Positions 8,785-50,791 of a DNA stretch of 64,000 nt are shown here, piece by piece. This DNA is from a virus. Its lineage: Duplodnaviria > Heunggongvirae > Uroviricota > Caudoviricetes. The position numbers and the translations under genes are program-made. The notes beneath the pieces were generated by a model. That model had not been told where the DNA came from. It worked only from the letters and a program-made list of their open reading frames with translations, and made no database searches. The stretch lies in IMG/VR virus record IMGVR_UViG_3300032321_001382. The stretch is one strand, 5' to 3'. Each line of letters starts with the position of its first letter. Position 1 is the first letter of the stretch.

Positions 8785-8786
8785 CA

Positions 8787-9581: not shown

Positions 9582-9591
9582 AAAAAATATT

Positions 9592-10349: not shown

Positions 10350-10358
10350 AATAAAAAA

Positions 10359-10715: not shown

Positions 10716-10725
10716 TTTATAAAAA

Positions 10726-11226: not shown

Positions 11227-11286
11227 ATATGATATAATTATCGTATTTTAGCAACACATATTAGTGAAATTAAAAAAAGTATAAAA

Positions 11287-11715: not shown

Positions 11716-11732
11716 AATAAAAATAAAATAAA

Positions 11733-11996: not shown

Positions 11997-12006
11997 AATA
12001 TAAAAA

Positions 12007-26804: not shown

Positions 26805-27488
26805 ATGTTAGGATTTTTTATAAAGACGCTCTCTCATCTGTTGTTATTCTATATCATAGTAATATCAATAGCGTATGCTTTATTAATATCTAATGGTACG
26901 TTACAATCAAAATATAAGCATCTTGTTAGAGAGTTTAAATATTCTGTATTAAGTCTCTTATTATTTAGTGTAATAGCTACTATTTTATATGAAACTAAAT
27001 TATTAAATTATACTACGCTATATTATAATATTAGTGAACATGGTTGGTTTTACTATTTTGGTATAATACCTATAATATTTCTTATATATGACTTTTATTT
27101 TTATCTCACACATATCTTAATGCATCATAAAAAATTATTTAATTTCTTTCATTTAACTCATCATAAATCTAAAGAGATTTCTCCCATGTCTGCTTTATCT
27201 ATGGACCCATTAGAAGCAATTATTAATCATGGAGCTTTACTTTTATTATTTTTATTATTTCCAATACATACATCTCATGTTTATTTATGGGTAGCAGTAA
27301 CAATAACTTATACTACTTATCTTCATTTAGGAACAGAGATATTTTCAAATAAATTCTTACAAACTAAGCTTGGAAAATTAATTAATACTACTACAACTCA
27401 TTCACAACATCACCTAAAATTTAAAGGTAATTATGGTTTTTATACTTTAATTTGGGATAAATTATTTAAAACAGAAAGAAATGCCTAA
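26805..27488 (+). CDS. fatty acid hydroxylase / sterol desaturase superfamily membrane enzyme (histidine boxes)
   Basis: 227 aa with several TM segments and the His boxes HILMHHKKLF, FHLTHHKSK and THSQHHLKFKGNYG, which match the di-iron HxxHH motifs of the FA_hydroxylase family. Confidence 0.65.
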   Translation: MLGFFIKTLSHLLLFYIIVISIAYALLISNGTLQSKYKHLVREFKYSVLSLLLFSVIATILYETKLLNYTTLYYNISEHGWFYYFGIIPIIFLIYDFYFYLTHILMHHKKLFNFFHLTHHKSKEISPMSALSMDPLEAIINHGALLLLFLLFPIHTSHVYLWVAVTITYTTYLHLGTEIFSNKFLQTKLGKLINTTTTHSQHHLKFKGNYGFYTLIWDKLFKTERNA

Positions 27489-30400: not shown

Positions 30401-31743
30401 TTGTAGGAGCTTCTGCTAATGGTGGAGTTGTAGTAGGTGGTTTATGTGGTACAGCAAGTGGAGCTTATTCAGCCATAGTTGGTGGTCAAACTAACATAGC
30501 AAGTGCGACAAATTCTTTTGTAGGTGGTGGTCGTTGTAACTGCGCTACTGGTCTTTGTGCCGCTGTTTTAGGTGGTCAATGTAATACAGCAAGTGGTTGT
30601 TATTCTAATGTAGCTAGTGGATGTAAAAATACAGCAAGTGGTCGATATGCTGGTGTAGGAGGTGGTAAAGATATTCTTAATCAAGGTGGTTATAGTTTTA
30701 TAGGTAGTGGAATTAGTAATTGTACTGGTTCAAACTTAAATTTATATGCTTTTATAGGTTCTGGATTTGCAAATTGCGTTACTGGACCTTGTTCACTTGT
30801 TGCTGGTGGTGGTAGCAACTCAGCAAGTGGATATCATACAGCCATACTTGGTGGTCGTAATAATATATCCAGTGGTGCTTGTAGTGCTATTGTTGGTGGA
30901 TGCGCTAATTCATCTACTACTGCATTTAGTTTTGTAGGTGGTGGATGTAATAATATTGCTTGTGGTGCTGCAGCTACTATATCTGGCGGTTATTGTAACA
31001 GAGCAAGTGGAGCTTGTTCTACTATATCTGGTGGTTATGGCAACCTAGCAAGTGGTGGATGGTCAACTGTCGCTGGTGGTAATAGTAATGCTGCTTGCAC
31101 TTTTAATAATATTTTTGTAGGTGGTGGTGCTAGTAATAAAGGAAATTCTGCTGGAGCAACAATTGTAGGAGGTATTTTTAATTGTAGTGTAACTGGTATT
31201 TATACCTCTATTTTAGGTGGTGCTAGTAATACGGTATGTGGTGCTTGTTCTGCAATATTAGGTGGTTCTGGAAATATAACAACTGCAGCATTGAGTGGTG
31301 CATTTGGATGTAATGTTAACAATATTACAGCTTGTTCATTTATGTCTAACCAATTAATAGCTTGTAATATATTTGGAGCTGGGGCTATTTGTGCTGACGC
31401 AAATGGTGTAATTGTTCCAGTAGTTTCAGATAGCAGATTAAAGACAAATATTTGTCCTTTAAATTCTGGAATGGATAAGGTATCATTATTAAATCCAGTT
31501 AGCTTTGAATGGAAAGATGAATTTAAAAAATCAAATGGAATTGATAGACAAATAGGCTTTATCGCTCAAGAAGTTAAAGAGGTAGTACCAGAGGCGGTAT
31601 TTGTTACAACAAGTGGTAATTTTGGATTAAATGATAGCCCTATTGTAGCACTATTGACCAAGGTTGTTCAAGACCAAGAAAAAAGAATCAATACTTTAGA
31701 AAAAAGAGTAGAAAATCTAGAGTTTTTAATGAAAAATAAGTAA
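27481..31743 (+). CDS. 1420-aa fibre protein: collagen-like Gly-X-Y region, then Cys-rich Hep_Hag-like repeats, then C-terminal Peptidase_S74 chaperone domain
   Basis: About 530 aa of G(T/S)SG(S/T)(S/A/N)G triplets with periodic LSFG/TFG/TYG interruptions, including roughly 25 perfect GVN/GTS/GLN triplets. Downstream come the same linker module (GAFGCNLTNTQACTFMANNFVVGDFISFGGCGCGVSIDNSGKLC) and repeat type as the giant gene. The C-terminus is SDSRLKTNICPLN...IGFIAQEVKEVVPEAVF. Confidence 0.85.
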   Translation: MPNVPISSLPFTSSVNPTALVPIVQNGITCSTYACLLGSGGGGGGGNVTCLVAGSGVILSPTTGVGVVTVTSTGSGSSGSSGSAGTSGSSGLSFGTSGTSGLSFGTSGTSGANGTSGSSGSSGINGSSGQTFGTSGTSGLSFGSSGTAGTSGLSYGTSGTSGANGTSGSSGSSGFSYGTSGTSGLSFGSSGTSGLSFGTSGTSGSSGSSGSSGTTFGSSGTSGLSYGTSGTSGSSGSSGATFGTSGSSGTSGSSGLSFGTSGTSGSSGTTFGTSGTSGTNGSSGSSGLSYGTSGTSGSSGAAGTSGFTYGTSGTSGSSGADGTSGETYGTSGTSGSSGAAGTSGQTYGTSGTSGSSGRNGSSGTSGSSGISFFGTTSGTSGTSGSSGAAGTSGETYGTSGTSGSSGTSGSSGTNGSSGTNGSSGTSGTSGSSGTTGTSGSSGSAGTSGLSFGTSGTAGTSGETFGTSGTNGTSGTSGSSGSSGSSGSSGSSGTSGTSGTSGSSGSSGSSGSAGTSGATFGTAGTSGSSGLSGTSGVNGLNGTSGVNGTSGVNGVNGTSGLNGTSGVNGTSGLSGTSGSSGSSGSSGSAGTSGATFGSSGTSGVGGILILGSGANSTERCGVNNTASGAYSFAGAGQCNIACGCGSSVIGGQCNSACGAFTGAFGCNLTNTQACTFMANNFVVGDFISFGGCGCGVSIDNSGKLCLQAGGGGGGGGIIVLDSGCNSSVRCGVGNSATGAYSFAGGGQCNTASGNCSFVGGGFSHSNCGVYSTIVGGLCNLACGACNVFIGGGICHSALAASTTIVGGVCNYTCGAHSFIGGGFGNRTLALCSTIVGGCCNFILGGTSYGFIGGGSNNCVAYSTSQGNYGVVVGGNGNTAGPNSAVVGGSGNTASTYNMFIGGGVNNKICADHQNGVIVGGCANIIYRGYNNFIGGGQANFICVPTFGSAFGTLVGGCTNCMCGQCGFIGGGAKNLVGASANGGVVVGGLCGTASGAYSAIVGGQTNIASATNSFVGGGRCNCATGLCAAVLGGQCNTASGCYSNVASGCKNTASGRYAGVGGGKDILNQGGYSFIGSGISNCTGSNLNLYAFIGSGFANCVTGPCSLVAGGGSNSASGYHTAILGGRNNISSGACSAIVGGCANSSTTAFSFVGGGCNNIACGAAATISGGYCNRASGACSTISGGYGNLASGGWSTVAGGNSNAACTFNNIFVGGGASNKGNSAGATIVGGIFNCSVTGIYTSILGGASNTVCGACSAILGGSGNITTAALSGAFGCNVNNITACSFMSNQLIACNIFGAGAICADANGVIVPVVSDSRLKTNICPLNSGMDKVSLLNPVSFEWKDEFKKSNGIDRQIGFIAQEVKEVVPEAVFVTTSGNFGLNDSPIVALLTKVVQDQEKRINTLEKRVENLEFLMKNK
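27700..29290 (+). repeat. collagen-like Gly-X-Y coding repeat (low-complexity DNA)
   Basis: ggt/ggc/gga appears every 9 nt with act/agt/tct/agc in between; spurious antisense ORFs overlap it. Confidence 0.7.
31426..31740 (+). other. Peptidase_S74 intramolecular chaperone domain (C-terminus of second fibre)
   Basis: SDSRLKTNI...SFEWKDEF...RQIGFIAQEVKEVVPEAV. Confidence 0.8.
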
Positions 31744-32109: not shown

Positions 32110-32982
32110 ATGAATATTATATTCCAAATTTCTGGTGGAATTGGTAAATCTATTACATCCACAGCAGTCTGTAAAGCAATAAAAAAGAAATATCCAAACG
32201 ATAAATTAATCGTTGTTACTGGTTATCCAGATGTATTTACTAATAGTAAAGATGTAGATATGGCTTTTGGCTTTGGTCAAGAAGGCTATTTCTATACAAA
32301 ATACATAGAAAATCAAGATGTAAAAATAATGGCTTTAGAGCCATACGTAGTAACAGAGCACGTTCAACAAAAAGAACACCTTATCGAAACGTGGTGTAAA
32401 CTATGTGATGTGCCTTACAATGGAGAGCAGCCAGAGGTGTTTATAAACGATAGAGAGCGCTCTTTCTTCCAAGAAAAATATAAAAGTGATAAGCCAATTT
32501 TGTTAATGCAAACAAATGGCGGAGCAGAACAACAACAAGTAAAATACTCTTGGGCAAGAGATATTCCTCGCCATGTAGTAGATGCAGTTGTTAATGAATT
32601 CAGAAATGATTATAATATAGTTCATATTAAAAGAGAAGACCAATATGGTTTTGATGGCACTTTTGCAGTAACAGACAACTATAAAGGAATATCTGTTTTA
32701 ATCGAAATGAGCGAGAAAAGATTATTCATGGATAGTTTTGCTCAACACACTGCAGCGGCTATAAATAAGCCATCTACCGTTCTTTGGATAGCCAATACCC
32801 CAAAAGTATTCGGATATGAATTACATGAAAATATTGTATCAAATCCATTTACTGCTAAAGGAGATTTAAAGAATAGTTTTTTTGGAAAATTTAATATTGT
32901 TGGAGCTTTAGAAGAATTTCCTTACAAAAACGAATTAGAAATATTCGATGTAGAAAAAGTAATTGCTTCTCTTAAAAAATAG
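32110..32982 (+). CDS. GT9-family (heptosyltransferase-like) glycosyltransferase
   Basis: 290 aa. N-terminal MNIIFQISGGIGKSITSTAVCKAIKKKYPNDKLIVVTGYP resembles the ALGD-type N-terminus of LPS heptosyltransferases. The C-terminal region carries a DS..QHTAAA block. Confidence 0.5.
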   Translation: MNIIFQISGGIGKSITSTAVCKAIKKKYPNDKLIVVTGYPDVFTNSKDVDMAFGFGQEGYFYTKYIENQDVKIMALEPYVVTEHVQQKEHLIETWCKLCDVPYNGEQPEVFINDRERSFFQEKYKSDKPILLMQTNGGAEQQQVKYSWARDIPRHVVDAVVNEFRNDYNIVHIKREDQYGFDGTFAVTDNYKGISVLIEMSEKRLFMDSFAQHTAAAINKPSTVLWIANTPKVFGYELHENIVSNPFTAKGDLKNSFFGKFNIVGALEEFPYKNELEIFDVEKVIASLKK

Positions 32983-32987
32983 CATTT

Positions 32988-33155
32988 TGTAGGGTGGTGA
33001 AATAGAGGGAACTTCCCTTATGGCAAACACACCCACTCGTCTCGTGGGCGCAGATAACGAAATAGAAAAGTAGTAAGGGGTTGACCACCAGCTTGCAAGC
33101 ATAACTGCTACTTTCCGAATCGCTGCTTGAAGGTTCGACCCCTTCTCCTACAGCC
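32988..33155 (+). ncRNA. tRNA-like / tmRNA-like structured RNA
   Basis: The 5' TGTAGGG (32988-32994) pairs with the 3' TCCTACA (33146-33152) as a 7-bp acceptor stem, followed by discriminator G and CC. Next to it lies a canonical T-arm GAAGG-TTCGACC-CCTTC (33129-33145). About 130 nt intervene, containing ATG GCA AAC...GAA AAG TAG TAA, a short reading frame ending in a tandem stop. The RNA sits in an intergenic gap just upstream of a bidirectional terminator. Confidence 0.4.
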
Positions 33156-33197
33156 TTCCCTATAGTCTCAGTATTATAGGTCTGCTCCTTATGGGAG

Positions 33198-33226
33198 AAA
33201 AAAAAGCCCCTTGATTGGGGTTTTTT
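33198..33226. terminator. bidirectional rho-independent terminator
   Basis: AAAAAAAA-GCCCC-TTGATT-GGGG-TTTTTT. It lies between the + strand tRNA-like RNA and the minus-strand tRNAs. Confidence 0.75.
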
Positions 33227-33231
33227 AATTG

Positions 33232-33302
33232 ATGCTTCACTAAGATTCGAACTTAGACTAAGAGAACCAAAAACTCTGGTGCTACCATTACACTATGAAG
33301 CA
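33232..33302 (-). tRNA. tRNA, anticodon UUG (Gln) by my fold; imperfect anticodon stem
   Basis: Minus-strand sequence TGCTTCA-TA-GTGT-AATGGTA-GCAC-C-AGAGT-TTTTGGT-TCTCT-TAGT-CTAAG-TTCGAAT-CTTAG-TGAAGCA-T. It has a good acceptor, D arm and T arm (TTCGAAT loop) and one T-T mismatch in the anticodon stem. Confidence 0.5.
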
Positions 33303-33308
33303 TTATTG

Positions 33309-33395
33309 CGGAAGGTCAGGGATTCGAACCCCAGATACCATTTCTAGTATGCTAGTTTTCAAGACTAGTGCATTCAACCGCTCTGCCAACCTTCC
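33309..33395 (-). tRNA. tRNA-Ser (anticodon UGA), class II with long variable arm
   Basis: Minus-strand sequence GGAAGGT-TG-GCA-GAGCGGTTGAA-TGC-A-CTAGT-CTTGAAA-ACTAG-CATACTAGAAATGGTATC-TGGGG-TTCGAAT-CCCTG-ACCTTCC-G. 87 nt, with a 3-bp D stem and an 18-nt variable arm typical of tRNA-Ser. Confidence 0.8.
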
Positions 33396-33396
33396 T

Positions 33397-34005
33397 TTAT
33401 TTCCTTTTAACATACAAGCAATCAAATTGAAAATCCCAACATCTTTTCTTATCAACTAGCGAAAAACCCCTATCTAAAAGATATTTATTTATCTCACTAT
33501 CTATTTTTTGATTTTCAAAACAAACTCTCTCTTCCGTTTCGATTTGTATAGCTTTTATTTCATTTATCTTATCACCTAGACCATCTAAAACCTCATATCC
33601 ATGACCCTCTACATCAATTTTAATTAAATCAATTTGGAAATCAAAGGTATCTAGTCTTATAGACTTTACTATATTTTTCTCATATTCTAGATTGTCAACA
33701 TGAAAGGATTTTTTTATAGAAGAAATACCTCTAAGTAGTTCGTTGTCAGACACAACTGATAAAAATTCTATCTCACCATTTTCATTAGAAGCAGCTACAT
33801 TGTATACTTTATACTTATAATTATCAATTATGTTATTATATGACTTTACATCAGCTTCTATTATGTGACAATTTTCAGTATTTAAATTCCAATACTTGGA
33901 AACATAATCAGTATCCTTACCATCTCTGCTACCTACCTCCATAAAAGAAGTTGGTTTAAAATAAGGTTTTAATATATCTGTAAGTTGTCTTAAGTCGTTT
34001 CTCAT
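33397..34005 (-). CDS. FkbM-family methyltransferase
   Basis: 202 aa; SFMEVGSRDGKDTDYVSKYW matches the FkbM SAM-binding block (f.DiGAn.G). Confidence 0.55.
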   Translation of the reverse strand: MRNDLRQLTDILKPYFKPTSFMEVGSRDGKDTDYVSKYWNLNTENCHIIEADVKSYNNIIDNYKYKVYNVAASNENGEIEFLSVVSDNELLRGISSIKKSFHVDNLEYEKNIVKSIRLDTFDFQIDLIKIDVEGHGYEVLDGLGDKINEIKAIQIETEERVCFENQKIDSEINKYLLDRGFSLVDKKRCWDFQFDCLYVKRK

Positions 34006-34622
34006 TTTGATTGTATATTGGATTCAAACTCTTTATTTTGAACTATTGTATCAAATGGAATTACAATCCTAGTATTATATAGACCACTTTGGTTTGAATT
34101 CAAACTCATATGCTGTAATATTTTAGCATAAAAATTATCTATTTCCATACCACTAGGTATAGCCATATTAATTATATCATCATATATTTTATGTTTTAAA
34201 GCATAAGCATGAGCGCAAACAATTTGGTTTCTGAAAAAATTCTCTACCAATCCTCCAAAATATAATAAATCCCAATCATTAAGAATAGATTCGTTTAGCC
34301 CTAGTATTTTACTTGGATTATCTAAAATTTGTACATCATCTTCTAGAATTAAAATTTTGCCATATCCTTTTTCCTTTGCTATTTTAACTATTCCCAAATG
34401 AGAAGCACGACACCCTAAAGAGTTTAAAATATACTTATCATCTATTTTGTTAAAATTCCTCCAATACTTAGGTTCTGGTATCTCTGTAAAGCTAATAGCA
34501 TCAAACCTTTCAAAGTTTGTTATACCAAATTTATCAAACTGCGCTAATAGGTTATTTTTCCTATTAACATCTTTTGCTAAATTTATATAAAATATTTTGT
34601 CAAAATACTTATTAATGTCCAT
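34002..34622 (-). CDS. glycosyltransferase family 25 (LPS/LOS-type)
   Basis: 206 aa; MDINKYFDKIFYINLAKDVNRKNNLLAQFDKFGI...FDAI is the GT25 N-terminal signature. Its start overlaps the upstream gene. Confidence 0.65.
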   Translation of the reverse strand: MDINKYFDKIFYINLAKDVNRKNNLLAQFDKFGITNFERFDAISFTEIPEPKYWRNFNKIDDKYILNSLGCRASHLGIVKIAKEKGYGKILILEDDVQILDNPSKILGLNESILNDWDLLYFGGLVENFFRNQIVCAHAYALKHKIYDDIINMAIPSGMEIDNFYAKILQHMSLNSNQSGLYNTRIVIPFDTIVQNKEFESNIQSK

Positions 34623-35443
34623 TATTTGCTATATCTAAAGTATTTAAAAAACCATTCGTGATTAGTGTAAATCCAATCACATACTTCTTTGGTTAATAAT
34701 GCTTTGGCTTTAGAAGGAGTCAACTTAAGTTGTTTTCTAATAGTGTGGTCTCCAAAAGCTCCATAAACCTCATCATCTTCTTTAGTAACTTGTTCAATAT
34801 TATCAAAATCGTGTTTAAAGTGTGTAATACCTAAATATTGATAAATCTTAGTCATGGTACTATCTGGATAAAGGCATAAATCCTCATATTTTATAAATAA
34901 AATCTTAGCATCATTTCCAGTTCGGATGATTTCTTGTAATCTTTCAATAGCCATACCCACTGGAGGATTCTGTAGCCAAAAGTCGATACGCTTAGGAACC
35001 GTTGTGGCTTGACCAGTTGACCAATTCACAATTCCTTGGCTCTTTTCTGGATTTTTTCTAAAATTACCCTCCATAGAAGCAAAAACATCTCTCAAATCCC
35101 TAACCATACAAATAATCTTAGGTTCTTCACCTCTAATGCTTGTAAGAAAATCGAAATGAATACCCCAACCTCTGCTTTTGTCAATAACATACTTTTTATC
35201 AGTAATAGAATTATAGAAAGCATCCATACCCTCTTTGCAAAAGGCTGTATAACCCTTTTTCATTAGTTCTTTGTCTTGGGCAATAAATTCTGGTGATGTG
35301 CTATAATTCTCTCTAGCAGCAAAAATAAGCTCTAAAACACCACTCGTAGGAGTTGCGTAAATATCTGGATTTTGTGCTAAAATGTTCTGAAGCATTGTGC
35401 TTCCAGCTCTAGGTAGTGAGCTTTGAAAAAATAAATTTTCCAT
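34622..35443 (-). CDS. PAPS-dependent sulfotransferase
   Basis: 273 aa; 5'-PSB-like LPRAGSTML and 3'-PB-like MVRDLRDVFASM motifs. Confidence 0.7.
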   Translation of the reverse strand: MENLFFQSSLPRAGSTMLQNILAQNPDIYATPTSGVLELIFAARENYSTSPEFIAQDKELMKKGYTAFCKEGMDAFYNSITDKKYVIDKSRGWGIHFDFLTSIRGEEPKIICMVRDLRDVFASMEGNFRKNPEKSQGIVNWSTGQATTVPKRIDFWLQNPPVGMAIERLQEIIRTGNDAKILFIKYEDLCLYPDSTMTKIYQYLGITHFKHDFDNIEQVTKEDDEVYGAFGDHTIRKQLKLTPSKAKALLTKEVCDWIYTNHEWFFKYFRYSK

Positions 35444-35726
35444 AATGTAGTTTCGCTTTAAAAAATGATTAATTTTACTACACGAAAGTAAAAATAAAAT
35501 ACCATAAAAGGAAATAAATTATGAAAAAAGTTGACATTCGTTTTAACACCAATTTCCCATCTAGAAGCCAATACGAATGGCGTGTATTAATTAATGGAGA
35601 TGGGGTTTCTATTCTTACATTGTTTCCTATACTACAGCTACATTTATTGAGGGTCATGGTATGAAATGGCACTTATCTACAGAAGCAAATGAAATAGAGA
35701 TTGATAACTCTTTAATTACCAACAAA

Positions 35727-36803
35727 TTAGCTATTATTAAGTAAGTGTTCTATATCAGTTAATACCCTATCTAGAGATATTTTCTTATGACACTCGAATT
35801 GTCTAGGTGTATCCTCATGCTCTGGACACCAATTCCAATCTCCTTTGTTAAATTTGAATAATTCATTGTTCCAACATCCATTACATATGCTTGTATCACT
35901 TATTCTGGTACAATCTGACTGAAATTCATGTGTATTTACCGAGAAGTTGGAAATCATCACAACCTTTTTATTTAAAGCCCAAGAAAGCCAAGACAATCCG
36001 CTTGATAAGCCAATAAAGAACTCTGAGTGATGTATTATATTGCTTACATTTTGTATTGACTTATCTTCTATATTAACAATATTTTTAAACTCGTTTTTCT
36101 CCATAGAAACCTCAATTACCTTATATCCTCTTTCATTTAATGAGTCAATTAATTCCTGCCAATAGTACCAAAGTTTACATTGGGATGTAGAAAAGGTAGA
36201 TATAGCTATATATTTCTCTTTTATAGGGCGCTCCATTACTTCAAAATCTACATATGGTTTAATTTCCTTAAATGGAATATTTAAAATATTTGTTGCGTTT
36301 TTTTGTAAGGGGATAGTGGATGGATTTACTGGTTCTTTTTTATCATCGTAAAACCAACCTAACTCGAATCCAGCATGAATATTTTCTATTAACTCTCCTT
36401 TTTCAGTAAAATTTATATGTGGATATTTGTTACGAAATAGATTATTATGAAAACATGATACAATAACATCACATTTGTAAAAATTTCTAAACTCTTCGCA
36501 ATAAGGCATCCAAGCTATAGTATCACCTAATGAACTACTTTCAAAATTTATAAGCACTCTTTTACCTTGAATTTCATCCTTTATACTTATTTTTTTTACA
36601 AAATTACCCTCAAATGTCACTAAAACAAAAATATCAGAAAAGTACTTTTTATCTAATCTAGCCCAACTACTCGGTTTTAACTTTGTTTGATAAATTATTT
36701 CATTCTTCTCTAAAAAACAAACATCGTATTCCCTATCTAACCCACCATCATTAAGTATTTCAAAAAATAAACCATCTACATGATGAATATTATATGTAAT
36801 CAT
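35727..36803 (-). CDS. GT9-like glycosyltransferase with C-terminal Cys4 cluster (resembles autotransporter protein-heptosyltransferases)
   Basis: 358 aa. KRVLINFESSSLGDTIAWMPYCEEF is an ALGD-type N-motif, and FFIGLSSGLSWLSWALNKKVVMI matches the DSG..HLA block. The C-terminus carries a CNGCW...WCPEH...FECH cysteine cluster. Confidence 0.5.
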   Translation of the reverse strand: MITYNIHHVDGLFFEILNDGGLDREYDVCFLEKNEIIYQTKLKPSSWARLDKKYFSDIFVLVTFEGNFVKKISIKDEIQGKRVLINFESSSLGDTIAWMPYCEEFRNFYKCDVIVSCFHNNLFRNKYPHINFTEKGELIENIHAGFELGWFYDDKKEPVNPSTIPLQKNATNILNIPFKEIKPYVDFEVMERPIKEKYIAISTFSTSQCKLWYYWQELIDSLNERGYKVIEVSMEKNEFKNIVNIEDKSIQNVSNIIHHSEFFIGLSSGLSWLSWALNKKVVMISNFSVNTHEFQSDCTRISDTSICNGCWNNELFKFNKGDWNWCPEHEDTPRQFECHKKISLDRVLTDIEHLLNNS

Positions 36804-37840
36804 TTATATAAGTTTAAATATTTTTCTTTAGTTAATCTAGAGGATACATTATTGTCAAACTTTGTCACGCTAGAATACATATAAGACAATGATTTACAAA
36901 CATTTATCCAATCATATTTTAATCTAGATTTACTCATTTCGTATACCCATACATCATAGTTTCCAATTATATGTTTTATACCATCAATTAGGCACATAGT
37001 CATTAAAGAGCCAGATGGTAATGGTTCCTGAATTACATACATACCATCAATATCTTTTGTACCCTTGTAAGTACCAACGATGGGTAAACAACAACTAGCT
37101 GATTCCAATAATGTCAAATTTGGATGACCAGCTTCTAAAAAAGAAGGATGTAAAAATATTGTGTGTTCTTTATATATATCTAAAAGTTCATTTTCAGTTG
37201 GGTTATTATCTATAATTCTTAGATTGCTATATTCTAATAGGTCTTTATGCAAATCAAAAAATTGTTTATTTGCTTGGGCTCCTACTATTGTTATGGGCAA
37301 GTTTAATTCTTTTGCAGCATTTATTCCATGTATAAAACCCTTTCTATCAATACTTTGGTCTCCAGCTAATCCATTATTAGCTACCATAAGTAATTTATGG
37401 TTTACATAATCATTTTTAAAACTTGGAGTAAAAAAGCTAGTGTTTACGCCATGTGACAAGTAAAATAATTTATCTGTTTCTTCAAAATATTGAATTAAAT
37501 GCTCTGCGTGTGTTATTGAGAATATAGAACCTTTCATAGCTTCTAAATTTTGCTTGTATACGTCACTATCTTTTCCATACCATTCTGTGTGGTGGTCATG
37601 CAATGAGAAAATATATGGTATATTACGACTTTTTGCCTCTAAGCATAGATTAGCCATATGTATATGAACTATGTCATATTCCATTGGTCTGATATCGTTT
37701 AGGTACTTAATATCAACACTATGTCCTAGTTCTTCAAAAGAACTTTTATATTCTCTTATAATTTTCTCAACAGCTCCCCAACCCATTTCCCCAATAGGTT
37801 TAATTGGAATCATTCCCGTTTGCAATTGGCAAATTCTCAT
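36800..37840 (-). CDS. GT4-family (GT-B) glycosyltransferase
   Basis: 346 aa; the C-terminal FLHPSFLEAGHPNLTLLESASCCLPIVGT matches the GT4 E-x7-E region. Confidence 0.65.
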   Translation of the reverse strand: MRICQLQTGMIPIKPIGEMGWGAVEKIIREYKSSFEELGHSVDIKYLNDIRPMEYDIVHIHMANLCLEAKSRNIPYIFSLHDHHTEWYGKDSDVYKQNLEAMKGSIFSITHAEHLIQYFEETDKLFYLSHGVNTSFFTPSFKNDYVNHKLLMVANNGLAGDQSIDRKGFIHGINAAKELNLPITIVGAQANKQFFDLHKDLLEYSNLRIIDNNPTENELLDIYKEHTIFLHPSFLEAGHPNLTLLESASCCLPIVGTYKGTKDIDGMYVIQEPLPSGSLMTMCLIDGIKHIIGNYDVWVYEMSKSRLKYDWINVCKSLSYMYSSVTKFDNNVSSRLTKEKYLNLYK

Positions 37841-40527
37841 ATAAATGTTTTTTCTTGTTTATCAATAAGTGAATATCCATTCAATTGTGTCGTTATCCTA
37901 TGCTTCAAAATACCCATCTTGTATGGAGATTTTTTAAAAATAGTATTGAAATATATATCAGCAGCATCCCATTTGTGAGTCCTCAATGTTTCAAACAACC
38001 ATTTTTTAGTATATTTTGGGAACATAATACATTGTAAACCAATTATCTTGTCGGTAATAAACAATAAATCTTGATTAGGTATTTCTTCAATTACATTTGA
38101 CTGCAACCACCCATGCTCTAAAGTTCTAGTATCTCCAAATGACATATAACCAATATTGTTTTTAGTAACAATTTTCAAAGAATTACTTATTATATCTATA
38201 AACTCATTTATAGTACTTTCTATTAAACAATCTCCCTCACAAACTATAAGAAAATCTTCGTCATCGAACTCTGTTAATATAGCATTTTTAAAAGATTCGT
38301 AACACCCATAATGAGAGGGTGTAAGAGCTGTTCCAATTTCCTGAATGCGATTTTCTTCAAATAAAAACATAGATACGCAAGCTGGTCTTAAACAATTACC
38401 CCTTGGTGGCAAATCGCTATATGGCTCGTTTGTGTGTAATACATACTCCCATCCAAAATCCTTAACTCTTTCTAAAGACTCTTTGCTTATTTTATGCTTT
38501 TCATCATTAAGTGTAGTTTGAATATGGACTAATTTTATTTTTGGCATTTTATTTTTATGCTTGAAGCTTCCAGTTTTATCGTAATCATTTATATTTTTTT
38601 CATTCATTAAATATTTTTCAACTTTATATATGTCATCTCCATCGTAAAACTCTAGTATTATTTCAATTTCTTTTCCATCATAATAAAACTCTTTTTTAAA
38701 CTCCCTAGTCTTATTTATTTGGAAACTATTATTGTAAAACTCTAATCCATTTTCTTTCATTGTAACATTTATCTTCCTTTCATCTATGTTATAAGTAAAA
38801 AAGTAAAACATATATTTATTTACAAACTCAATAGGCAAAATTGAGTAGTACTCTGAATTTGAAGCTACGCCAACACCGCTATTGGTTAAAAATGTATCTT
38901 GTTCATTTTCAATAAGATGAACGTCATTTTCATTAAATGATAATACCTTCTTAACTAGATAATCTTCTAAAAAATTCTGAGCTCCAATATTTTCACAAGC
39001 ACGATTGTAAGACTCTGCATCTCTTACATTATCAAAATTGTGTAAAAAGAAATCAACGCTAAAAGTCATTCCATTTGTTTGTATACCTCTTCCAAATGGC
39101 GTAGCTAGTGTTCCCAAATAGGCTTGACATTTGCCAGATTCTATATAACTAAGAGATTCATTTATAGTAGCTAAGTCATCCTCATGTACAACAACATCAT
39201 AGGTATTATAAAAGAAACGCCTATATCCAAGCTCCCTTGCTAGTTTGGCTCCATTGTACATATTGGTGAGAACAGTTAATGATTGATTGCTATTCTTTAA
39301 TCCATTGATATTTATATCAACCTCGTATTCATTATTGTAATTAAAAAACTTTGTATAAAAACTATGATGCGTCAAGGGATTATTCGCGTCATATACATAA
39401 TAATCAACCATTTTTTGTATTTCTAAATCCACGGGGTAATGTGAAACAAGCATTATCTTCCTTTCTAATTTATAAAGACTTTGTATTGTATCCTTAGTAA
39501 GCTGAACCCTACTTTTTAAATTAGGATAAGTACCAATTATAATAAGCTCTTCTCCATTTACCTTGGGCTTTGGGTTAGTGATTCTCAATATAATATTAGA
39601 ATCCTCCTTCAAATCATCAACTAAAAAATTGAAATTATGCTCATTATTATACCTATTCAAATAAACATCTAGATTAAATAATAGCTTAGGTACATCATCA
39701 AATTTTATTGCCTCTTTGATAACTATTGGGTTTAGTTCTTTGTTATACTTGTCGCCCCTAGATGGAAATAAAAACAAATCGCAAGCCCTAATAAATTCTT
39801 CGGTATCATCTCTTTCTCCCCAAATGATACAATTACTTGGCTTATTATTCATTAGTGGCTGCCAATAACTTGAAAAATTTTCAGCAGTATTACCTAGAAA
39901 ATGAAATTTAATTTTGTAATCTTCTAAACTTTTAGCCAATTCAAATGCATATTTCTGATTCTTTCTAGGGGTAAATAATCCAATAACAACAACGTGCTTA
40001 TAATCGTCTTGCAGTCCTAGTATTTTTCTACTTTCTTTTCTATCTCTATTATATTTATCTACTGGGTACTCTATCAAACTTGTAGGAACATCAAAATCTC
40101 TATATTTTAATAACGTATAAGGACTTACAAAAACAAACTCATCTGGTAAAAAAACCTTGTCTTCAACTTTAAAGCTAGAGTCATGTGTCGTTTCAACTAT
40201 CTTGTATGTCCTATCTTTTTTATATATCAATTTAGCAATCTCACTATCCATAAACATTTCAGGAAACTCCTCCATAGCAATAACGCTTGGATTATATGCT
40301 TGTATTATATTGACTATTAGGCTCTTATCTTCTCCTAGGGAAATAAAGTGGTCGTTTCCGATTAAATCTATAATACGATTTCTTTGTACTATAAAAGTAT
40401 TCGATAGGAAGCTGTACTCTATCAATAATATTTCAAAATCATCTTTTAATAATTCGATTTTATTGGCTGTCACTTGTGGAGCACCGCCAGTTGAACAATG
40501 TGGGGTTATAACTAAAAGTTTTTTCAT
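37837..40527 (-). CDS. 896-aa multidomain glycosyltransferase (N-terminal GT-B-like plus additional domains)
   Basis: N-terminal MKKLLVITPHCSTGGAPQV is Rossmann-like; large central and C-terminal regions follow. It is translationally coupled to flanking glycosyltransferases through 4-nt overlaps. Confidence 0.55.
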   Translation of the reverse strand: MKKLLVITPHCSTGGAPQVTANKIELLKDDFEILLIEYSFLSNTFIVQRNRIIDLIGNDHFISLGEDKSLIVNIIQAYNPSVIAMEEFPEMFMDSEIAKLIYKKDRTYKIVETTHDSSFKVEDKVFLPDEFVFVSPYTLLKYRDFDVPTSLIEYPVDKYNRDRKESRKILGLQDDYKHVVVIGLFTPRKNQKYAFELAKSLEDYKIKFHFLGNTAENFSSYWQPLMNNKPSNCIIWGERDDTEEFIRACDLFLFPSRGDKYNKELNPIVIKEAIKFDDVPKLLFNLDVYLNRYNNEHNFNFLVDDLKEDSNIILRITNPKPKVNGEELIIIGTYPNLKSRVQLTKDTIQSLYKLERKIMLVSHYPVDLEIQKMVDYYVYDANNPLTHHSFYTKFFNYNNEYEVDININGLKNSNQSLTVLTNMYNGAKLARELGYRRFFYNTYDVVVHEDDLATINESLSYIESGKCQAYLGTLATPFGRGIQTNGMTFSVDFFLHNFDNVRDAESYNRACENIGAQNFLEDYLVKKVLSFNENDVHLIENEQDTFLTNSGVGVASNSEYYSILPIEFVNKYMFYFFTYNIDERKINVTMKENGLEFYNNSFQINKTREFKKEFYYDGKEIEIILEFYDGDDIYKVEKYLMNEKNINDYDKTGSFKHKNKMPKIKLVHIQTTLNDEKHKISKESLERVKDFGWEYVLHTNEPYSDLPPRGNCLRPACVSMFLFEENRIQEIGTALTPSHYGCYESFKNAILTEFDDEDFLIVCEGDCLIESTINEFIDIISNSLKIVTKNNIGYMSFGDTRTLEHGWLQSNVIEEIPNQDLLFITDKIIGLQCIMFPKYTKKWLFETLRTHKWDAADIYFNTIFKKSPYKMGILKHRITTQLNGYSLIDKQEKTFI

Positions 40528-41459
40528 ATAATTTCTAATATTTTATTAAATACTTGTTCTGTTGATGGGTGACATTCATATGTCTTTTTGTTTTCTAAGC
40601 ATCCTATAAGTGGGGGAACTCCTTGAATATCGCCCCATTGCTTAACTCCATGCTTCATATTAGAGGCACATTCCAAATTACACGAACCACGAACATAATT
40701 GTATTTGTAGGTTTGACTTAATTTTCTATATGGAGCTCTAAATTCTGGCTTTATAGAAGAGCCTAAATGTATAATATTAGAATCAGTTGTTCCAGCTAAA
40801 TGTAATAAACCAGAGTCCATGGTTACAAAACAAGAAGCCTTGTCAATAAGATTCCAGCAATCAGAAATTGATGTTTTATTCATAAGATTCAATCCATTTT
40901 CTATACTAAAATTAAAAACTGGCTTTTCAACATCAAAAAACCCCATCTCTTTTGAGTCTTTCCCAATAGAGACAACGCTAATACCATTATCATTAAGCAT
41001 TTTCGTCAACAACATCCAATTTATATCTCCCCAAGTTCTACTTTCCCAAGTACTTACTGGGTGTATTAGAACATATCTATCTGGTATTGTGATATTTAAC
41101 TCTTCAATAGGACGATAAAAACACTCTAACTCGTCTTTACCTAGCATAAATCCCAAGCTGATTGCATGAAATTGTCTAATATCTATCATATTGTGCTTGT
41201 ACTCAATCCCCTTTTCATTTTTACCACCAATATTGTAAAATGAATTATGTACTATGTAATTTTTATTTATATAATCCATATTTACCGAGCTTATTTTTAA
41301 ACTTTTATCTACATAGATATTGTTTTTAAATAGCTCTGGCATTAAAGATAGTATGGTTATCTTTTGTTCGTAAGATTCTGATAATTTTTTAATAGTTGGA
41401 GTTGAGCAAATCAAGTCTCCAAGTCCCTTGCACTCACCTAGATTTAAACAAACTTTCAT
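40524..41459 (-). CDS. GT9 heptosyltransferase-like glycosyltransferase with C-terminal Cys cluster
   Basis: 311 aa. LIHPVSTWESRTWGD...DSGLLHLAGTTDSNIIHLGSS is the classic GT9 C-domain. The C-terminal region carries CNLECAS...C...YECH. Confidence 0.65.
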   Translation of the reverse strand: MKVCLNLGECKGLGDLICSTPTIKKLSESYEQKITILSLMPELFKNNIYVDKSLKISSVNMDYINKNYIVHNSFYNIGGKNEKGIEYKHNMIDIRQFHAISLGFMLGKDELECFYRPIEELNITIPDRYVLIHPVSTWESRTWGDINWMLLTKMLNDNGISVVSIGKDSKEMGFFDVEKPVFNFSIENGLNLMNKTSISDCWNLIDKASCFVTMDSGLLHLAGTTDSNIIHLGSSIKPEFRAPYRKLSQTYKYNYVRGSCNLECASNMKHGVKQWGDIQGVPPLIGCLENKKTYECHPSTEQVFNKILEII

Positions 41460-41554
41460 TTAAAATTTTTTTTACTTTCGCATAAGCTAAATAAATTGCT
41501 TATTATATACAAAGATAATGAATAGTTTATTATATTTGCACATTATTTATACAT

Positions 41555-41932
41555 ATGAAAATAGAAATAAGCACTGGAGAAGCACTAGATAGGTTATCGA
41601 TATTGAAAATAAAGTCTACCAAAATAAAAGACCAAAATAAATTAATAAATGTTATAAACGAGTATACATATCTAAAAAATGTAATATATCAAGAGCTTCT
41701 TCTGGATGAGGAAAACAACTTTTTTATATCACTATATAATATCAATAATCTTTTATGGGAAGTCGAGGATGAGTTAAGAAGATTAGAAGTTGATATGATT
41801 TTTAATGATAAATTTATTAATTTCGCCAGAGAGGTTTATAAACTAAACGACCAAAGAGCAAAAATAAAAAAAGATTGTAATGTTTTTCACAAATCAACAT
41901 TTGTTGAAGAAAAGTCTTACAATCATATGTAA
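41555..41932 (+). CDS. hypothetical protein
   Basis: 125-aa ORF at the strand switch. Confidence 0.45.
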   Translation: MKIEISTGEALDRLSILKIKSTKIKDQNKLINVINEYTYLKNVIYQELLLDEENNFFISLYNINNLLWEVEDELRRLEVDMIFNDKFINFAREVYKLNDQRAKIKKDCNVFHKSTFVEEKSYNHM

Positions 41933-41964
41933 ATAATTGATTTACAATTAAATATGAAAATAAA

Positions 41965-42408
41965 ATGATAATATTACTTTATGGGCAACCAGCCTCTGGA
42001 AAAACTACACTCTCCAACGAATTGATGAGAATTTACGATAAGGAAGACGCTATTCAAATAGATGGCGATAAGTGGAGAGATGTTACAAAAAATAAAGATT
42101 ATAGCAAAGAAGGTAGAAATCGCAACCTAAAAGGTGCTTTTGATATGGCTATATACTTAGAAAGGGCTGGTTATATGCCAATTTTAAGCTTTGTAACACC
42201 CTATGAAGAATATAGGAAATACTTGGCAGAAAATAGCAATAAACTTATTGAAATATACTTGTTTTATAATGAAAGCGTAGATAGAGGTAGAAATGATTTT
42301 TTTGCAAAAGACTTTGAAAAACCATCCAAGGACTTTTTAGCATTAAATACCTCTTTGTTTTCAGTAGAACAATGTGTTAATGAAATAATTAACTATATTA
42401 AAATTTAA
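41965..42408 (+). CDS. cysC: adenylylsulfate (APS) kinase
   Basis: 147 aa. LLYGQPASGKTTLS (P-loop) and IDGDKWRD...SKEGRNRNLKGAFDMAIYLERAGYMPILSFVTPY align motif-for-motif with the CysC blocks LDGDNVR...S..DR.ENIRR..EVA....AG.....AFISP. Confidence 0.7.
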   Translation: MIILLYGQPASGKTTLSNELMRIYDKEDAIQIDGDKWRDVTKNKDYSKEGRNRNLKGAFDMAIYLERAGYMPILSFVTPYEEYRKYLAENSNKLIEIYLFYNESVDRGRNDFFAKDFEKPSKDFLALNTSLFSVEQCVNEIINYIKI

Positions 42409-42414
42409 TAATAT

Positions 42415-42813
42415 ATGTGGGAAAATAAAGTTTATGTAAAAAGTAGTTTAATGCCAAAGGCAACCCAATATGCACTATTTATTGGAAGATGGCAACCACT
42501 GCATGATGGTCACAAAGCTCTTTTTCAACAAGTCTTGGATAGAGGAGAAAGTGTTTGTATAGCTATAAGGGATGGGGAAACAAACGAAAAAAATCCGTTT
42601 ACTCCACAAGAGGTTTTAGAGAAAATATCAGAATATTATAAAGACAATATCGTTTCAGGAAAAGTCAAAGTCATTATCATACCAGATATTTGTAGCGTTA
42701 ACTTTGGAAGAGGGGTAGGTTATGATATCATAGAGCATATTCCCCCATCAGAAATAGCAGACATTAGCGCAACTAAGGTGCGTGAAGAAATGCGTAAAAA
42801 AGGTGAATTATGA
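42415..42813 (+). CDS. cytidylyltransferase-family nucleotidyltransferase (TagD-like, HxGH)
   Basis: 132 aa; FIGRWQPLHDGH is the (T/H)xGH motif and the C-terminal ADISATKVREEM matches ISTTxIKEEI of glycerol-3-phosphate cytidylyltransferase. Confidence 0.65.
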   Translation: MWENKVYVKSSLMPKATQYALFIGRWQPLHDGHKALFQQVLDRGESVCIAIRDGETNEKNPFTPQEVLEKISEYYKDNIVSGKVKVIIIPDICSVNFGRGVGYDIIEHIPPSEIADISATKVREEMRKKGEL

Positions 42814-43031
42814 GCTTAGGAGTAGATAAAAAACGACATATTGCCAAGACTATTAGTTATAGGGTTTTAAGCACCCTAATTGGCTTTTTAATAATGTGGG
42901 CTATCAGTGGCTCGCTTAAGGTTGGAGCCGCCTTTGGAGTGGCTGAAATCGTCTATAAACCCATACAATACTATATCCATGAAAGGATATGGTATAAATA
43001 CATCAAATTCGGGTTAAAAAATAAAAAATAA
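42810..43031 (+). CDS. DUF2061-like small membrane protein
   Basis: 73 aa; KTISYRVLSTLIGFLIMWAISGSLKVGAAFGVAEIVYKPIQYYIHERIWYK matches the DUF2061 pattern. By my recollection this family is often encoded next to sulfate-activation genes. Confidence 0.5.
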   Translation: MSLGVDKKRHIAKTISYRVLSTLIGFLIMWAISGSLKVGAAFGVAEIVYKPIQYYIHERIWYKYIKFGLKNKK

Positions 43032-50119: not shown

Positions 50120-50791
50120 TTAAATTTTATTGTTAAATGGTATAGTGAATTTTTCTAATAATGGAACGTTGCCCCATTTGTCAATATATCTTTGCCTATT
50201 GTATCTCATAGATAAGTTAACCAAATCTGGGGCTTTCTCATATGTTTGACTAACTAGTGCATCTTTTGGATTCAATTGATTATTTACTTCATGTTGTAAG
50301 CCATGCAGCTTTAATCTATACATATAATCGCTATCCTCAAAATAAGCTGGGAAAAAACCTTCATCAAACTCACCTATGTACTCGTACAAGTCTTTGTTAA
50401 TTAAAATTACAGACCAATTTAACTCAGATTGAACCAATCCAACCTCGCTCATTTCTATACACATATTAACTCTTGTATTACCATATCCCAAGTAAACATC
50501 ATCATTAATAATTAAAGCCCAATCTTGTTTTGCAAAAATTAATCTACAGAGCTTATTCCAAGATGCAGCAACACCAATGTTTTCTTTTTGATTATGTACG
50601 TAAATCTGTACGTTTTCTTCTAAATTACTTAGACCTTGATTACCATTATCAATAATATGAATATCTATATCTTTAAAATCTTTTAGGTACTTTTCAATTG
50701 ATGGTAGTAATAGGTCTGCTCTATTAAGTGTGGGTATTCCTATTGAGAACATAATATAAGTTTTTTTTAAAAAAAGGGGCGGGAAACACAA
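50120..50791 (-). CDS. GT2-family (GT-A fold) glycosyltransferase
   Basis: 223 aa; MFSIGIPTLNRADLLLPSIEKYL and the IINDDVYLG DxD-like region. Confidence 0.55.
   Translation of the reverse strand: MCFPPLFLKKTYIMFSIGIPTLNRADLLLPSIEKYLKDFKDIDIHIIDNGNQGLSNLEENVQIYVHNQKENIGVAASWNKLCRLIFAKQDWALIINDDVYLGYGNTRVNMCIEMSEVGLVQSELNWSVILINKDLYEYIGEFDEGFFPAYFEDSDYMYRLKLHGLQHEVNNQLNPKDALVSQTYEKAPDLVNLSMRYNRQRYIDKWGNVPLLEKFTIPFNNKI

Follow-up and report, generated by a model that had tools for sequence, protein, structure and literature searches.

A phage gene island with a BAHT-family enzyme and a sulfation module, a probable toolkit for modifying the phage's own fibres

Introduction

What would a phage do with a set of glycosyltransferase, methyltransferase and sulfotransferase genes lying next to its fibre genes? 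The question is raised by a stretch of 64,000 nucleotides from an uncultured freshwater phage (IMG/VR record IMGVR_UViG_3300032321_001382; the whole stretch is called the window below), in which an island of about 11 kb at positions 32110–43031 follows two large fibre genes. Phage receptor-binding fibres are usually regarded as bare protein. The comparative analysis described here leads us to consider it probable that the island is a toolkit with which the phage would modify its own fibres, an enzyme of the BAHT family (that of TibC and Aah) initiating an O-linked glycan that would later be extended, methylated and sulfated. To our knowledge, the BAHT family is known only from the autotransporters of pathogens, and in the literature we found no account of a phage BAHT (TibC/Aah) or of a BAHT tied to collagen-like proteins. 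The automatic label given to these genes by the JGI pipeline is 'autotransporter strand-loop-strand O-heptosyltransferase'.

Materials and methods

Genes were identified by open reading frame (ORF) calling and by profile searches against Pfam and NCBIfam. For the BAHT family we used TIGR04414 (hepto_Aah_TibC), a curated equivalog model with a cut-off of 200 bits. The comparison covered 50,697 deposited phage genome records, 52 IMG/VR contigs carrying the BAHT cassette (31 dereplicated groups, 34–60% identity) and, for the bacterial survey, a scan of 185,579 species genomes. Shared genes were counted by tblastn of every window ORF against the module loci. Runs of the (G-T/S-X)n type were called by a regular expression for G-(T/S/A/N)-(S/T/A/G/N) triplets in groups whose flanks span 5 kb or more, and the composition-based count of partner ORFs was restricted to groups having at least 3 kb of flank (n = 26). 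Family memberships, conserved residues, synteny, gene fusions and modularity were observed in these analyses.

Results

A BAHT-family enzyme encoded by a phage

By profile and residue conservation, the protein encoded at 35727–36803 (minus strand) is a bona fide member of the BAHT (TibC/Aah) family. It matches TIGR04414 with 247.3 bits (E = 2.3e-73) over model positions 37–373 of 374, and the sequences of the TibC crystal structures 4RB4 and 4RAP with E = 6e-44 (phmmer). In TibC, Asp110 is the catalytic base, Thr226 and Lys230 are ligands of the β-phosphate, Trp305 contacts the heptose, and Cys339, Cys342, Cys358 and Cys370 bind iron in an 'iron finger' (PMC4358343). The equivalent residues of the phage protein, Asp94, Thr206, Lys210 and Trp272, do not vary among 13 phage homologues. 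Its Cys307, Cys310, Cys326 and Cys338 align with the four finger cysteines with identical spacing (C-x2-C-x15-C-x11-C), and they are invariant both across the 13 diverged phage homologues and in the bacterial homologues. The alignment with TIGR04414 starts at residue 32 and that with TibC at residue 45; Pfam TibC_1st is unmatched in the window protein and weakly matched (E = 5e-4) in the fused homologues L001 and L045. TibC and a Trinickia enzyme form a small clade of their own in a rough neighbour-joining tree, apart from the phage sequences and from the bacterial sequences linked to (GTS)n proteins described below.

An earlier interpretation of this DNA, made from its letters and ORFs (the sequence-only reading), had placed this protein in the TibC/Aah class of GT9 enzymes, with iron-finger cysteines. 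The assignment is borne out: the cysteine strings that it quoted are present and align with those of TibC, the protein passes TIGR04414, and a second protein for which such a cluster was claimed (40524–41459) matches the Pfam GT9 profile with 54.7 bits. BAHTs are cytoplasmic protein O-glycosyltransferases and not lipopolysaccharide (LPS) enzymes. We propose from these family relationships that the protein is the initiating enzyme, which would transfer heptose from ADP-heptose to Ser/Thr.

Four genes of the minus strand form the core of the surrounding cassette, in the order GT9b (40524–41459), an 896-residue multidomain glycosyltransferase that we call GT896 (37837–40527), a GT4-like enzyme (36800–37840) and BAHT. 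Together with a DUF6165 gene on the plus strand (41555–41932) they make up the syntenic core in other phages (BAHT in 53 loci, GT896 in 49, GT4 in 42, DUF6165 in 34 and GT9b in 31). The order GT9b–GT896–GT4–BAHT is kept in most of the 52 IMG/VR loci, and the other window genes are almost never shared. Only four of the 50,697 deposited phage genomes carry a BAHT homologue (Microcystis phage Mel-JY01 and three megaphage assemblies); in a metagenome protein collection, homologues number 2,662 at E ≤ 1e-10. The earlier remark that such a pathway would be unusual for a phage is not supported as far as the module is concerned: with these metagenomic homologues and the 52 IMG/VR contigs, the module is rare only among cultured phages. 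The BAHT protein of the window is itself in that collection (100% identity), on a contig about 120 kb long from metagenome KRAE22-1.

Fibre genes beside the cassette

Two fibre genes precede the island on the plus strand, fibre 1 at 12007–23748 (3913 residues) and fibre 2 at 27481–31743 (1420 residues). Both products are of the trimeric-fibre type, each ending in a Peptidase_S74 intramolecular chaperone (44.4 bits, C-terminal, in fibre 1; 61.6 bits, nt 31426–31599, in fibre 2). Fibre 2 also matches Pfam Collagen with 137 bits and, below threshold, two collagen-like adhesins, Scl2 and Lcl. Its residues 71–650 (nt 27691–29430) form a 580-residue collagen-like (G-T/S-S)n tract, GTSGTSGLSFGTSGTSG..., with 31% Gly, 32% Ser and 16% Thr (Ser and Thr together about 49%), some 283 hydroxyl side chains and almost no Lys or Pro. 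The tract is followed by Cys-rich GGxxN repeats and then by the Peptidase_S74 domain.

Tracts of this kind recur beside the BAHT gene. A giant ORF of 250–2,300 residues, 40–75% of them Gly, Ser or Thr, lies convergently downstream of BAHT in 17 of the 26 groups counted by composition, and ORFs with (G-T/S-X)n runs are found in 19 of the 24 groups that have 5 kb or more of flank. The runs occur in fibre-type ORFs only, bar one short borderline run in Mel-JY01, and on the downstream side only, never in the 10 kb upstream, again except in Mel-JY01. Within the window, the regular expression matches fibre 2 alone. The collagen-like tract of fibre 2 is, on this neighbourhood evidence, the likeliest acceptor.

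Fibre 1 is a possible secondary acceptor. It contains 8.5% Cys and is built of repeats of about 15 residues (xSxVxGGxxNxAxG) arranged in about ten larger modules. For a protein synthesized in the cytoplasm of a bacterium, such a Cys content is extraordinary; it implies that disulfides or metals cross-link the released fibre extensively. An AlphaFold2 (AF2) model of one module is an all-β solenoid with a mean predicted local distance difference test score (pLDDT) of 70; searched against PDB folds, it gave nothing better than E = 0.1, and fibre 1 has no match in NCBIfam. Apart from the window, only a few relatives have Cys-rich repeats of this type, and most partner fibres contain 0–0.5% Cys. 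The sequence-only reading had argued for fibre glycosylation from β-helical repeats of the kind heptosylated by Aah and TibC and from 'hundreds' of N-x-S/T sequons. We count 153 sequons, 125 in fibre 1 (about 1.4 times the compositional expectation) and 28 in fibre 2, and this line of argument fails: BAHTs O-glycosylate, neither fibre has the target repeat of strand-loop-strand type, and it is the collagen-like Gly-Thr-Ser tract, not the Cys-rich repeats, that is conserved as the partner.

Two further genes adjoin the fibre genes. Between them, 23732–25888 (plus strand) encodes a protein of 718 residues with three Laminin_G_3/concanavalin-like lectin domains, a candidate carbohydrate-binding receptor protein. 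The product of 26805–27488 (plus strand) belongs to the fatty-acid hydroxylase/sterol desaturase family (PF04116, 88 bits), membrane di-iron enzymes that are unusual in a phage; the stop codon of this gene overlaps the start of the collagen-like fibre gene, to which it appears to be translationally coupled.

Gene fusions and associated oxygenases

Enzymes of the island are found joined in single polypeptides in other phages, namely GT4–BAHT, GT4–BAHT–FkbM, GT9b–FkbM and, in a T4-like contig, FkbM–sulfotransferase. BAHT–GT4 fusions are present in loci L023, L028 and L045, and the Mel-JY01 homologue is a single annotated coding sequence of 1226 residues. Since these activities are fused, the enzymes would act on one product, for which we regard the fusions as strong evidence at the level of gene architecture.

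In other phages, P4H-like 2-oxoglutarate (2OG) oxygenases and collagen-plus-S74 fibres of about 430 residues also adjoin the module. Two to four P4H-like 2OG-Fe(II) oxygenases in arrays stand beside glycosylation and sulfation genes and collagen-like fibres in L085 (683–6611), L014 (4002–5311) and other loci, and the FkbM–sulfotransferase fusion recurs with these arrays. This suggests that hydroxylation is a further fibre modification in other phages.

The BAHT branch in bacterial chromosomes

The scan of species genomes gave 28 loci. Those on low-GC contigs of metagenome-assembled genomes (MAGs) that carry the phage-type module are probably mis-binned phage DNA. In the genuine chromosomal loci the BAHT homologue stands alone. 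In Methylobacter luteus it lies between mfd and glycolate-oxidase genes; further examples come from another Methylobacter, a MAG of the Methylococcales and several MAGs of gamma- and betaproteobacteria. In ten chromosomal loci BAHT is flanked, at distances of up to about 1.1 kb, by small ORFs for secreted proteins or lipoproteins made up mostly of (GTS/GTA/GSS)n tracts; on one side or both the distance is no more than about 160 bp, and these ten 21-kb loci contain no further (GTS)n tract anywhere else. Partner genes of the (GTS/GSS)n type are found in L065, L068, L069 and L084 (about 8440–8930 and 11175–11870), L066 (8914–9777), L070 (7282–8232) and L073 (11121–11435). Next to the Trinickia BAHT homologue, the place of the (GTS)n protein is taken by a classical AIDA-repeat autotransporter.

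As far as comparative evidence can indicate a substrate class for this BAHT branch, the phage and bacterial pairings together point to proteins with Gly-Thr/Ser-Ser repeats. The idea that the island decorates the fibres thus survives, carried by the convergent fibre synteny (the 19 of 24 groups above), the fusions and the bacterial (G-T/S-S)n pairings, and no longer by the β-helix and sequon rationale on which it had first been put forward.

As an observation in its own right, one or two (GTS/GSS)n genes and BAHT form an apparently undescribed cassette of two to three genes in methanotrophs and other proteobacteria.

Two separable modules

The island had been taken as one unit; comparison with close relatives divides it into two modules. 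Contig L087 is colinear with the window at 80–86% nucleotide identity, its proteins being about 90% identical, and L086 is also colinear. Both match the window from the gene for a conserved protein of 290 residues (p290, 32110–32982, plus strand; phrog_8954, E = 1e-8) through the FkbM, GT25 and sulfotransferase (SULT) genes, and then from the APS kinase (APSK), nucleotidyltransferase (NT) and DUF2061 genes onward, while about 35525–41950 of the window is wholly absent. In L087 the SULT and APSK genes are 82 bp apart (junction 4471–4552), and L086 has a second sulfotransferase at the cassette's spot. Because the gap in colinearity sits exactly there, the BAHT cassette is a discrete insertion or deletion of 6.4 kb, bounded at 35525–41950 by blastn/tblastn colinearity and junction alignment. 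The polymorphism is exact and separates near-identical phages of different samples (KRAE22-1 and GROS21-1), which makes it a natural experiment. On these alignments, the island is a BAHT cassette (module B), mobile among uncultured freshwater phages, inside a separate sulfation/methylation module (module A). The left junction of the cassette falls in a 283-bp gap (35444–35726) with a possible 47-codon ORF on the plus strand from about 35526 and a 64-codon ORF with a GTG start on the minus strand.

The minus-strand genes run in the order GT9b, GT896, GT4-like, BAHT, the 283-bp gap, SULT, GT25, FkbM and two tRNAs, and they overlap at start and stop codons within two blocks, which in the block from GT9b to BAHT suggests translational coupling. 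The divergent plus-strand operon comprises DUF6165, APSK, NT and DUF2061.

Other proteins of the cassette

The second cysteine-cluster protein, GT9b, scores 36 bits against the TIGR04414 cut-off of 200 and lacks the N-terminal β-barrel. By profile–profile alignment (hhalign) it matches the BAHT profile with 96.9% probability (E = 1.6e-10), with its four invariant cysteines (260, 264, 287 and 296) aligned to the iron finger and the Asp of an LGD motif to the catalytic base; the claim of an iron-finger cluster in this protein thus holds by profile alignment. From these comparisons GT9b is a BAHT-related paralogue and not an equivalog.

Three GT9 proteins had been claimed, of which 35727–36803 and 40524–41459 stand. 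For the third, p290, Pfam and NCBIfam gave nothing at E ≤ 0.1 and a PDB sequence search gave nothing; in hhalign, a stretch of 75 residues matched GT9b with 44% probability, and the BAHT profile was matched with 0.5%. A third GT9 is thus not supported. With a Lys at the position of the GT9 catalytic Asp, p290 is possibly a degenerate GT-B/GT9-like protein, and it adjoins the sulfation module in relatives.

GT896, which had been described as a multidomain glycosyltransferase, is indeed one according to Pfam and an AF2 model (pLDDT 81, from a 36-sequence alignment). It consists of an N-terminal GT4 domain (residues 1–318), an α/β domain (325–540), a β-sandwich (555–655) and a C-terminal α/β domain with an EGD motif (660–890). 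Foldseek matched the N-terminal domain of the model to BshA, PimB' and WaaG (E of about 1e-10) and its other parts to COLGALT1 and LH3, collagen glycosyltransferases of tandem GT-A type (E of about 2e-9). The middle and C-terminal domains match nothing among Pfam and PDB profiles, so that the leads for them come from the structure model only.

The assignment of 36800–37840 to GT4 survives in a softened form, as GT4-like: the protein, a GT-B glycosyltransferase, matches Pfam Glycos_transf_1 with 24.4 bits (E = 2e-5), below the gathering score of 26.4. DUF6165 (47 bits in Pfam), which the gene list of the sequence-only reading lacked, belongs to the core of the module (34 loci) and is divergent from the rest of the cassette; searching its profile against the PDB gave one chance match of coiled-coil type, which is uninformative.

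Sulfation and methylation genes

Module A includes, on the minus strand, an FkbM-family methyltransferase (33397–34005; 48.8 bits in Pfam, 42 bits with TIGR01444), a GT25-family glycosyltransferase (34002–34622; 51.4 bits) and SULT, a sulfotransferase of the type that uses 3′-phosphoadenosine 5′-phosphosulfate (PAPS), at 34622–35443 (61.1 bits with Sulfotransfer_3, cut-off 27; 55.6 bits with Sulfotransfer_1, cut-off 22). SULT has a weak match to NoeE, a carbohydrate sulfotransferase. On the plus strand follow APSK, a short kinase of 147 residues for adenosine 5′-phosphosulfate (APS) at 41965–42408 (Pfam APS_kinase 48.9 bits, cut-off 21.1), NT at 42415–42813 and DUF2061, a small membrane protein (42810–43031; 63.4 bits) whose gene is the last of the sulfation operon. 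Pfam confirmed all the earlier calls of FkbM, GT25, sulfotransferase, APS kinase and DUF2061, and also that of a GT2 glycosyltransferase outside the island (50120–50791, minus strand; 28.6 bits), a homologue of which is absent from the related loci by tblastn.

APSK has the P-loop GQPASGKTT and a DGD motif and scores 49 bits with the NCBIfam equivalog model (cut-off 139); from these motifs we propose that it makes PAPS from APS. SULT and APSK occur together in 15–16 loci. The order SULT–APSK–NT–DUF2061 is kept in three other phage contigs, L087, L086 and the unrelated T4-like myophage contig L085, where it adjoins four 2OG-Fe(II) oxygenases, and GT25 is kept with SULT and FkbM in L086 and L087.

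No canonical ATP sulfurylase (Sat or CysDN) is found within the window. NT, a protein of 132 residues resembling nicotinamide mononucleotide adenylyltransferases (NMNATs), matches CTP_transf_like with 27.8 bits and carries the motifs GRWQPLHDGH (HxGH) and ISATK of the adenylyltransferase superfamily. It had been called a TagD-like cytidylyltransferase; its closest PDB profile matches are archaeal-type NMNATs and not sulfurylases, so that nothing in these matches marks it as a recognizable ATP sulfurylase. It has 4,882 standalone homologues. Since NT invariably follows APSK, it may, judged by this gene linkage only, be a sulfate adenylylation enzyme that supplies APS, and a new route to activated sulfate may lie hidden in the SULT–APSK–NT–DUF2061 operon. 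That NT is an enzyme of TagD or RfaE type in a heptose pathway was considered and rejected, the protein being NMNAT-like and co-varying with APSK and not with BAHT.

The rest of the window

Genes for tRNA-Gln(TTG) and tRNA-Ser(TGA) lie downstream of the FkbM gene (33231–33395, minus strand; ARAGORN and Rfam), and Rfam found nothing beyond these two. The two fibre genes together use the codons TCA 180 times and CAA 82 times, and the two tRNAs may help to translate these Ser-rich proteins. In a promoter and terminator scan, shuffled sequence scored as well as real sequence.

Megablast of the island against the 50,697 phage records gave no match, nor did tblastn of two large window proteins, by which the virus is thus not classifiable. 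Searches of PHROGs and Pfam returned almost nothing for the putative structural genes, and those of PDB sequences with an ATPase-like protein and a 330-residue protein were empty or non-significant. In window positions 1–12000 and in L056, the 10 kb upstream on the contig, no capsid, portal, terminase or tail genes are recognizable; the region holds many small ORFs as well as SLT, Peptidase_M15_3 and PAP2, and 182–994 gives only a weak signal of a HerA/FtsK-type (DUF87) ATPase. None of its large proteins matches PHROGs or the 50,697 phage genomes. The virus could be very divergent or non-tailed. Further downstream, 55148–57772 (plus strand) encodes a protein of 874 residues with 5.9% Cys and cEGF, Sushi, TIL and DUF5874 domains, which are extracellular modules of eukaryotic type.

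Discussion

We may now return to the question of what the island is for. What follows is our inference as regards the acceptor and its sugars, the sequence of events and the part played by NT. In the host cytoplasm during infection, the BAHT enzyme would add a first sugar, probably a heptose from the host nucleotide-heptose pool, to Ser/Thr hydroxyls of a fibre, most likely within the 580-residue tract of fibre 2. GT9b, the GT4-like enzyme and the three catalytic-type domains of GT896 would lengthen the glycan, and GT25 would add a further sugar. FkbM would O-methylate a sugar, and SULT would sulfate the glycan with PAPS made locally by the phage APSK, for which NT may supply the APS. BAHT family membership, convergent synteny, the bacterial (GTS)n pairings and the fusions all support glycosylation of a fibre. 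The fibre target is further supported by the resemblance of the C-terminal part of GT896 to COLGALT1/LH3, together with the recurrence of collagen–S74 fibres and 2OG oxygenases beside the module.

Several observations weigh against this account. The acceptor is deduced from gene neighbourhood only, a GTS-type ORF is absent from five well-flanked locus groups, and neither TIGR04415 (the BAHT target repeat) nor Pfam AIDA is found in either fibre; the Trinickia autotransporter, used as a positive control, scores 450 and 272 bits, respectively. Genes for ADP-heptose synthesis were not seen in the window. The COLGALT1/LH3 matches of GT896 have low TM-scores (0.16–0.3) and may reflect generic GT-A folds. 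The relative at 80–86% identity lacks the cassette, which is thus dispensable, and module A is also found where module B is absent, so that they may work on different glycans. Finally, two features of TibC have changed in the phage enzyme. Arg286 of TibC contacts adenine N1 and so gives specificity for ADP-sugars, and a β-hairpin 'thumb' with the hydrophobic tip Phe265/Val266 is needed for the dodecamer (PMC4358343). Arg286 is replaced by Val253 in the window protein and by V, I, T, C or A in the phage clade and Methylobacter, never being Arg in the window's clade; it is kept in TibC, Trinickia and some gammaproteobacterial MAGs. The thumb of the window protein is about ten residues shorter (gaps of 6, 3 and 1), with one hydrophobic residue left. 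The sugar donor and the oligomeric state may therefore differ from those of TibC.

A bolder form of the proposal can be stated tentatively, and we hold it with less confidence than its core. This BAHT branch, so far unrecognized, would be dedicated to collagen-like (Gly-Thr/Ser-Ser)n proteins instead of autotransporters, existing in bacteria as a two-gene pair and in many freshwater phages as a mobile cassette of five genes. Jointly with the methylation and sulfation module, the phage cassette would cover the fibres with methylated and sulfated O-glycans and so yield the first sulfated phage glycoprotein fibres. NT would be a minimal non-canonical sulfate adenylyltransferase, so that PAPS would be available even in hosts without assimilatory sulfate activation.

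The chief alternative is that the enzymes add heptose, other sugars, methyl groups and sulfate to the LPS core, O-antigen or capsule of the host, so that superinfection is blocked or re-adsorption of progeny stopped, the fibre region being a hypervariable 'host recognition cluster'. GT9, GT4, GT25 and GT2 are classic LPS-core and O-antigen families, and GT9b scores about equally with the LPS heptosyltransferase II and TibC models. Moreover, the cassette is accessory and absent from a close relative, as in arms-race gene sets, and fibre-linked glycosyltransferases of pelagimyophages have been published as modifiers of the host O-chain (PMC7029224), which also counts against fibre glycosylation. 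However, the BAHT protein passes a protein-targeting equivalog model and keeps the iron finger, which GT9b shares, and apparently an N-terminal region foreign to LPS heptosyltransferases. The bacterial branch pairs with (GTS)n proteins in housekeeping neighbourhoods and not in LPS clusters, and strict convergent adjacency to Ser/Thr-rich fibre genes in unrelated phages would be left unexplained. Pfam and profile searches found no flippase, polymerase, ligase or polyprenyl-phosphate priming enzyme in the island; the absence of such membrane-associated export and ligation genes favours a protein over an envelope target. We consider host-envelope modification unlikely.

Less likely still is that the cassette targets another protein (a capsid protein, the lectin-domain protein at 23732–25888, or a host or secreted protein) or the Cys-rich solenoid repeats. 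Known glycosylation of phage virions concerns the capsid and tail tube of mycobacteriophages, whose glycosylation was reportedly described in 2023. Putative capsid glycosylation is also mentioned in PMC11256854. TibC acts on a β-helix (PMC4358343) and the fibre 1 module is modelled as a β-solenoid; the five locus groups without nearby GTS-type ORFs could be read in the same way. Yet only the window and a small number of relatives have the Cys-rich repeats, and what is conserved as a partner is the Gly/Ser/Thr-rich tract. Moreover, the partners in bacteria are plain (GTS)n proteins that contain no solenoid repeats, and the capsid genes of this virus are not even recognizable in Pfam, PHROGs and PDB searches.

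Phage glycosyltransferases often modify DNA, but glycosylation of phage DNA bases as an evasion of restriction is very improbable here: the island has no hydroxymethylase or base-modifying enzyme, we know of no DNA substrates for the BAHT, sulfotransferase, FkbM and GT25 families, and the fibre synteny and bacterial (GTS)n pairings would remain unexplained. The DNA-modifying role of phage glycosyltransferases is restated in PMC10202952.

If a widespread class of aquatic phages does glycosylate, methylate and sulfate its fibres by enzymes of its own, models of host range, adsorption, particle stability and recognition by grazers or immune systems would change, and the default reading of fibre-linked glycosyltransferases as 'auxiliary metabolic genes' for host LPS would need revision. 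The BAHT family would extend to a new substrate class, present also in cultivable Methylobacter, which makes the hypothesis directly testable.

How does the proposed system compare with those already known? Mycobacteriophages reportedly encode glycosyltransferases that modify their own structural proteins in the host cytoplasm; they differ in glycosyltransferase families, targets (capsid and tail tube), hosts and scale, and have no methylation/sulfation module. The TibC/TibA and Aah/AIDA-I systems of Escherichia coli (PMC4358343) share with the phage BAHT the family, fold, catalytic residues and spacing of the four-Cys finger. As in the phage, the tibC gene adjoins the gene of a long repetitive surface protein, and by analogy the phage enzyme is presumably cytoplasmic and O-glycosylating. 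In contrast to TibC, its partner is a fibre or collagen-like (G-T/S-S)n protein without TIGR04415 and not an autotransporter, the Arg286 position is Val/Ile/Thr, and the shortened thumb makes a dodecamer doubtful. The phage BAHT is moreover virus-encoded and embedded with four to five more glycosyltransferase domains, a methyltransferase and a sulfotransferase, which suggests an oligosaccharide rather than mono-heptosylation.

The pelagimyophage and cyanomyophage host recognition clusters (PMC7029224) show the same hypervariable mix of tail-fibre genes and LPS-type glycosyltransferases. There, however, O-antigen modification was proposed, GT8 is dominant, and BAHT, sulfotransferase and PAPS genes are not reported; nor is the present virus T4-like, as it has no PHROG or INPHARED matches to T4 core genes. 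Chloroviruses and mimiviruses (PMC9614988) are likewise viruses with their own multi-enzyme glycan machinery for fibrils or capsids, but their hosts are not bacterial. The animal enzymes COLGALT1 and LH3, the closest tandem GT-A matches to the GT896 model, are of the GT25 family and act on collagen-like substrates; the tract of fibre 2, almost without Lys and Pro, makes hydroxylysine-linked glycosylation impossible there. What separates the phage from both the giant-virus and the collagen systems is that its initiating enzyme would be a BAHT.

Functionally, a close analogy is offered by BclA of the Bacillus anthracis exosporium, likewise a trimeric filament with a collagen-like G-X-Thr tract and clustered glycan genes, which bears O-linked oligosaccharides ending in a methylated sugar (PMC6222408, PMC10050317). 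It is a functional analogy only: BclA is an unsulfated spore protein and relies on rhamnosyltransferases and the anthrose pathway, without a BAHT. Set beside these systems, the island most likely represents BAHT-type protein glycosylation retargeted to collagen-like fibres and joined with methylation and sulfation, a coating not described before for phage fibres.

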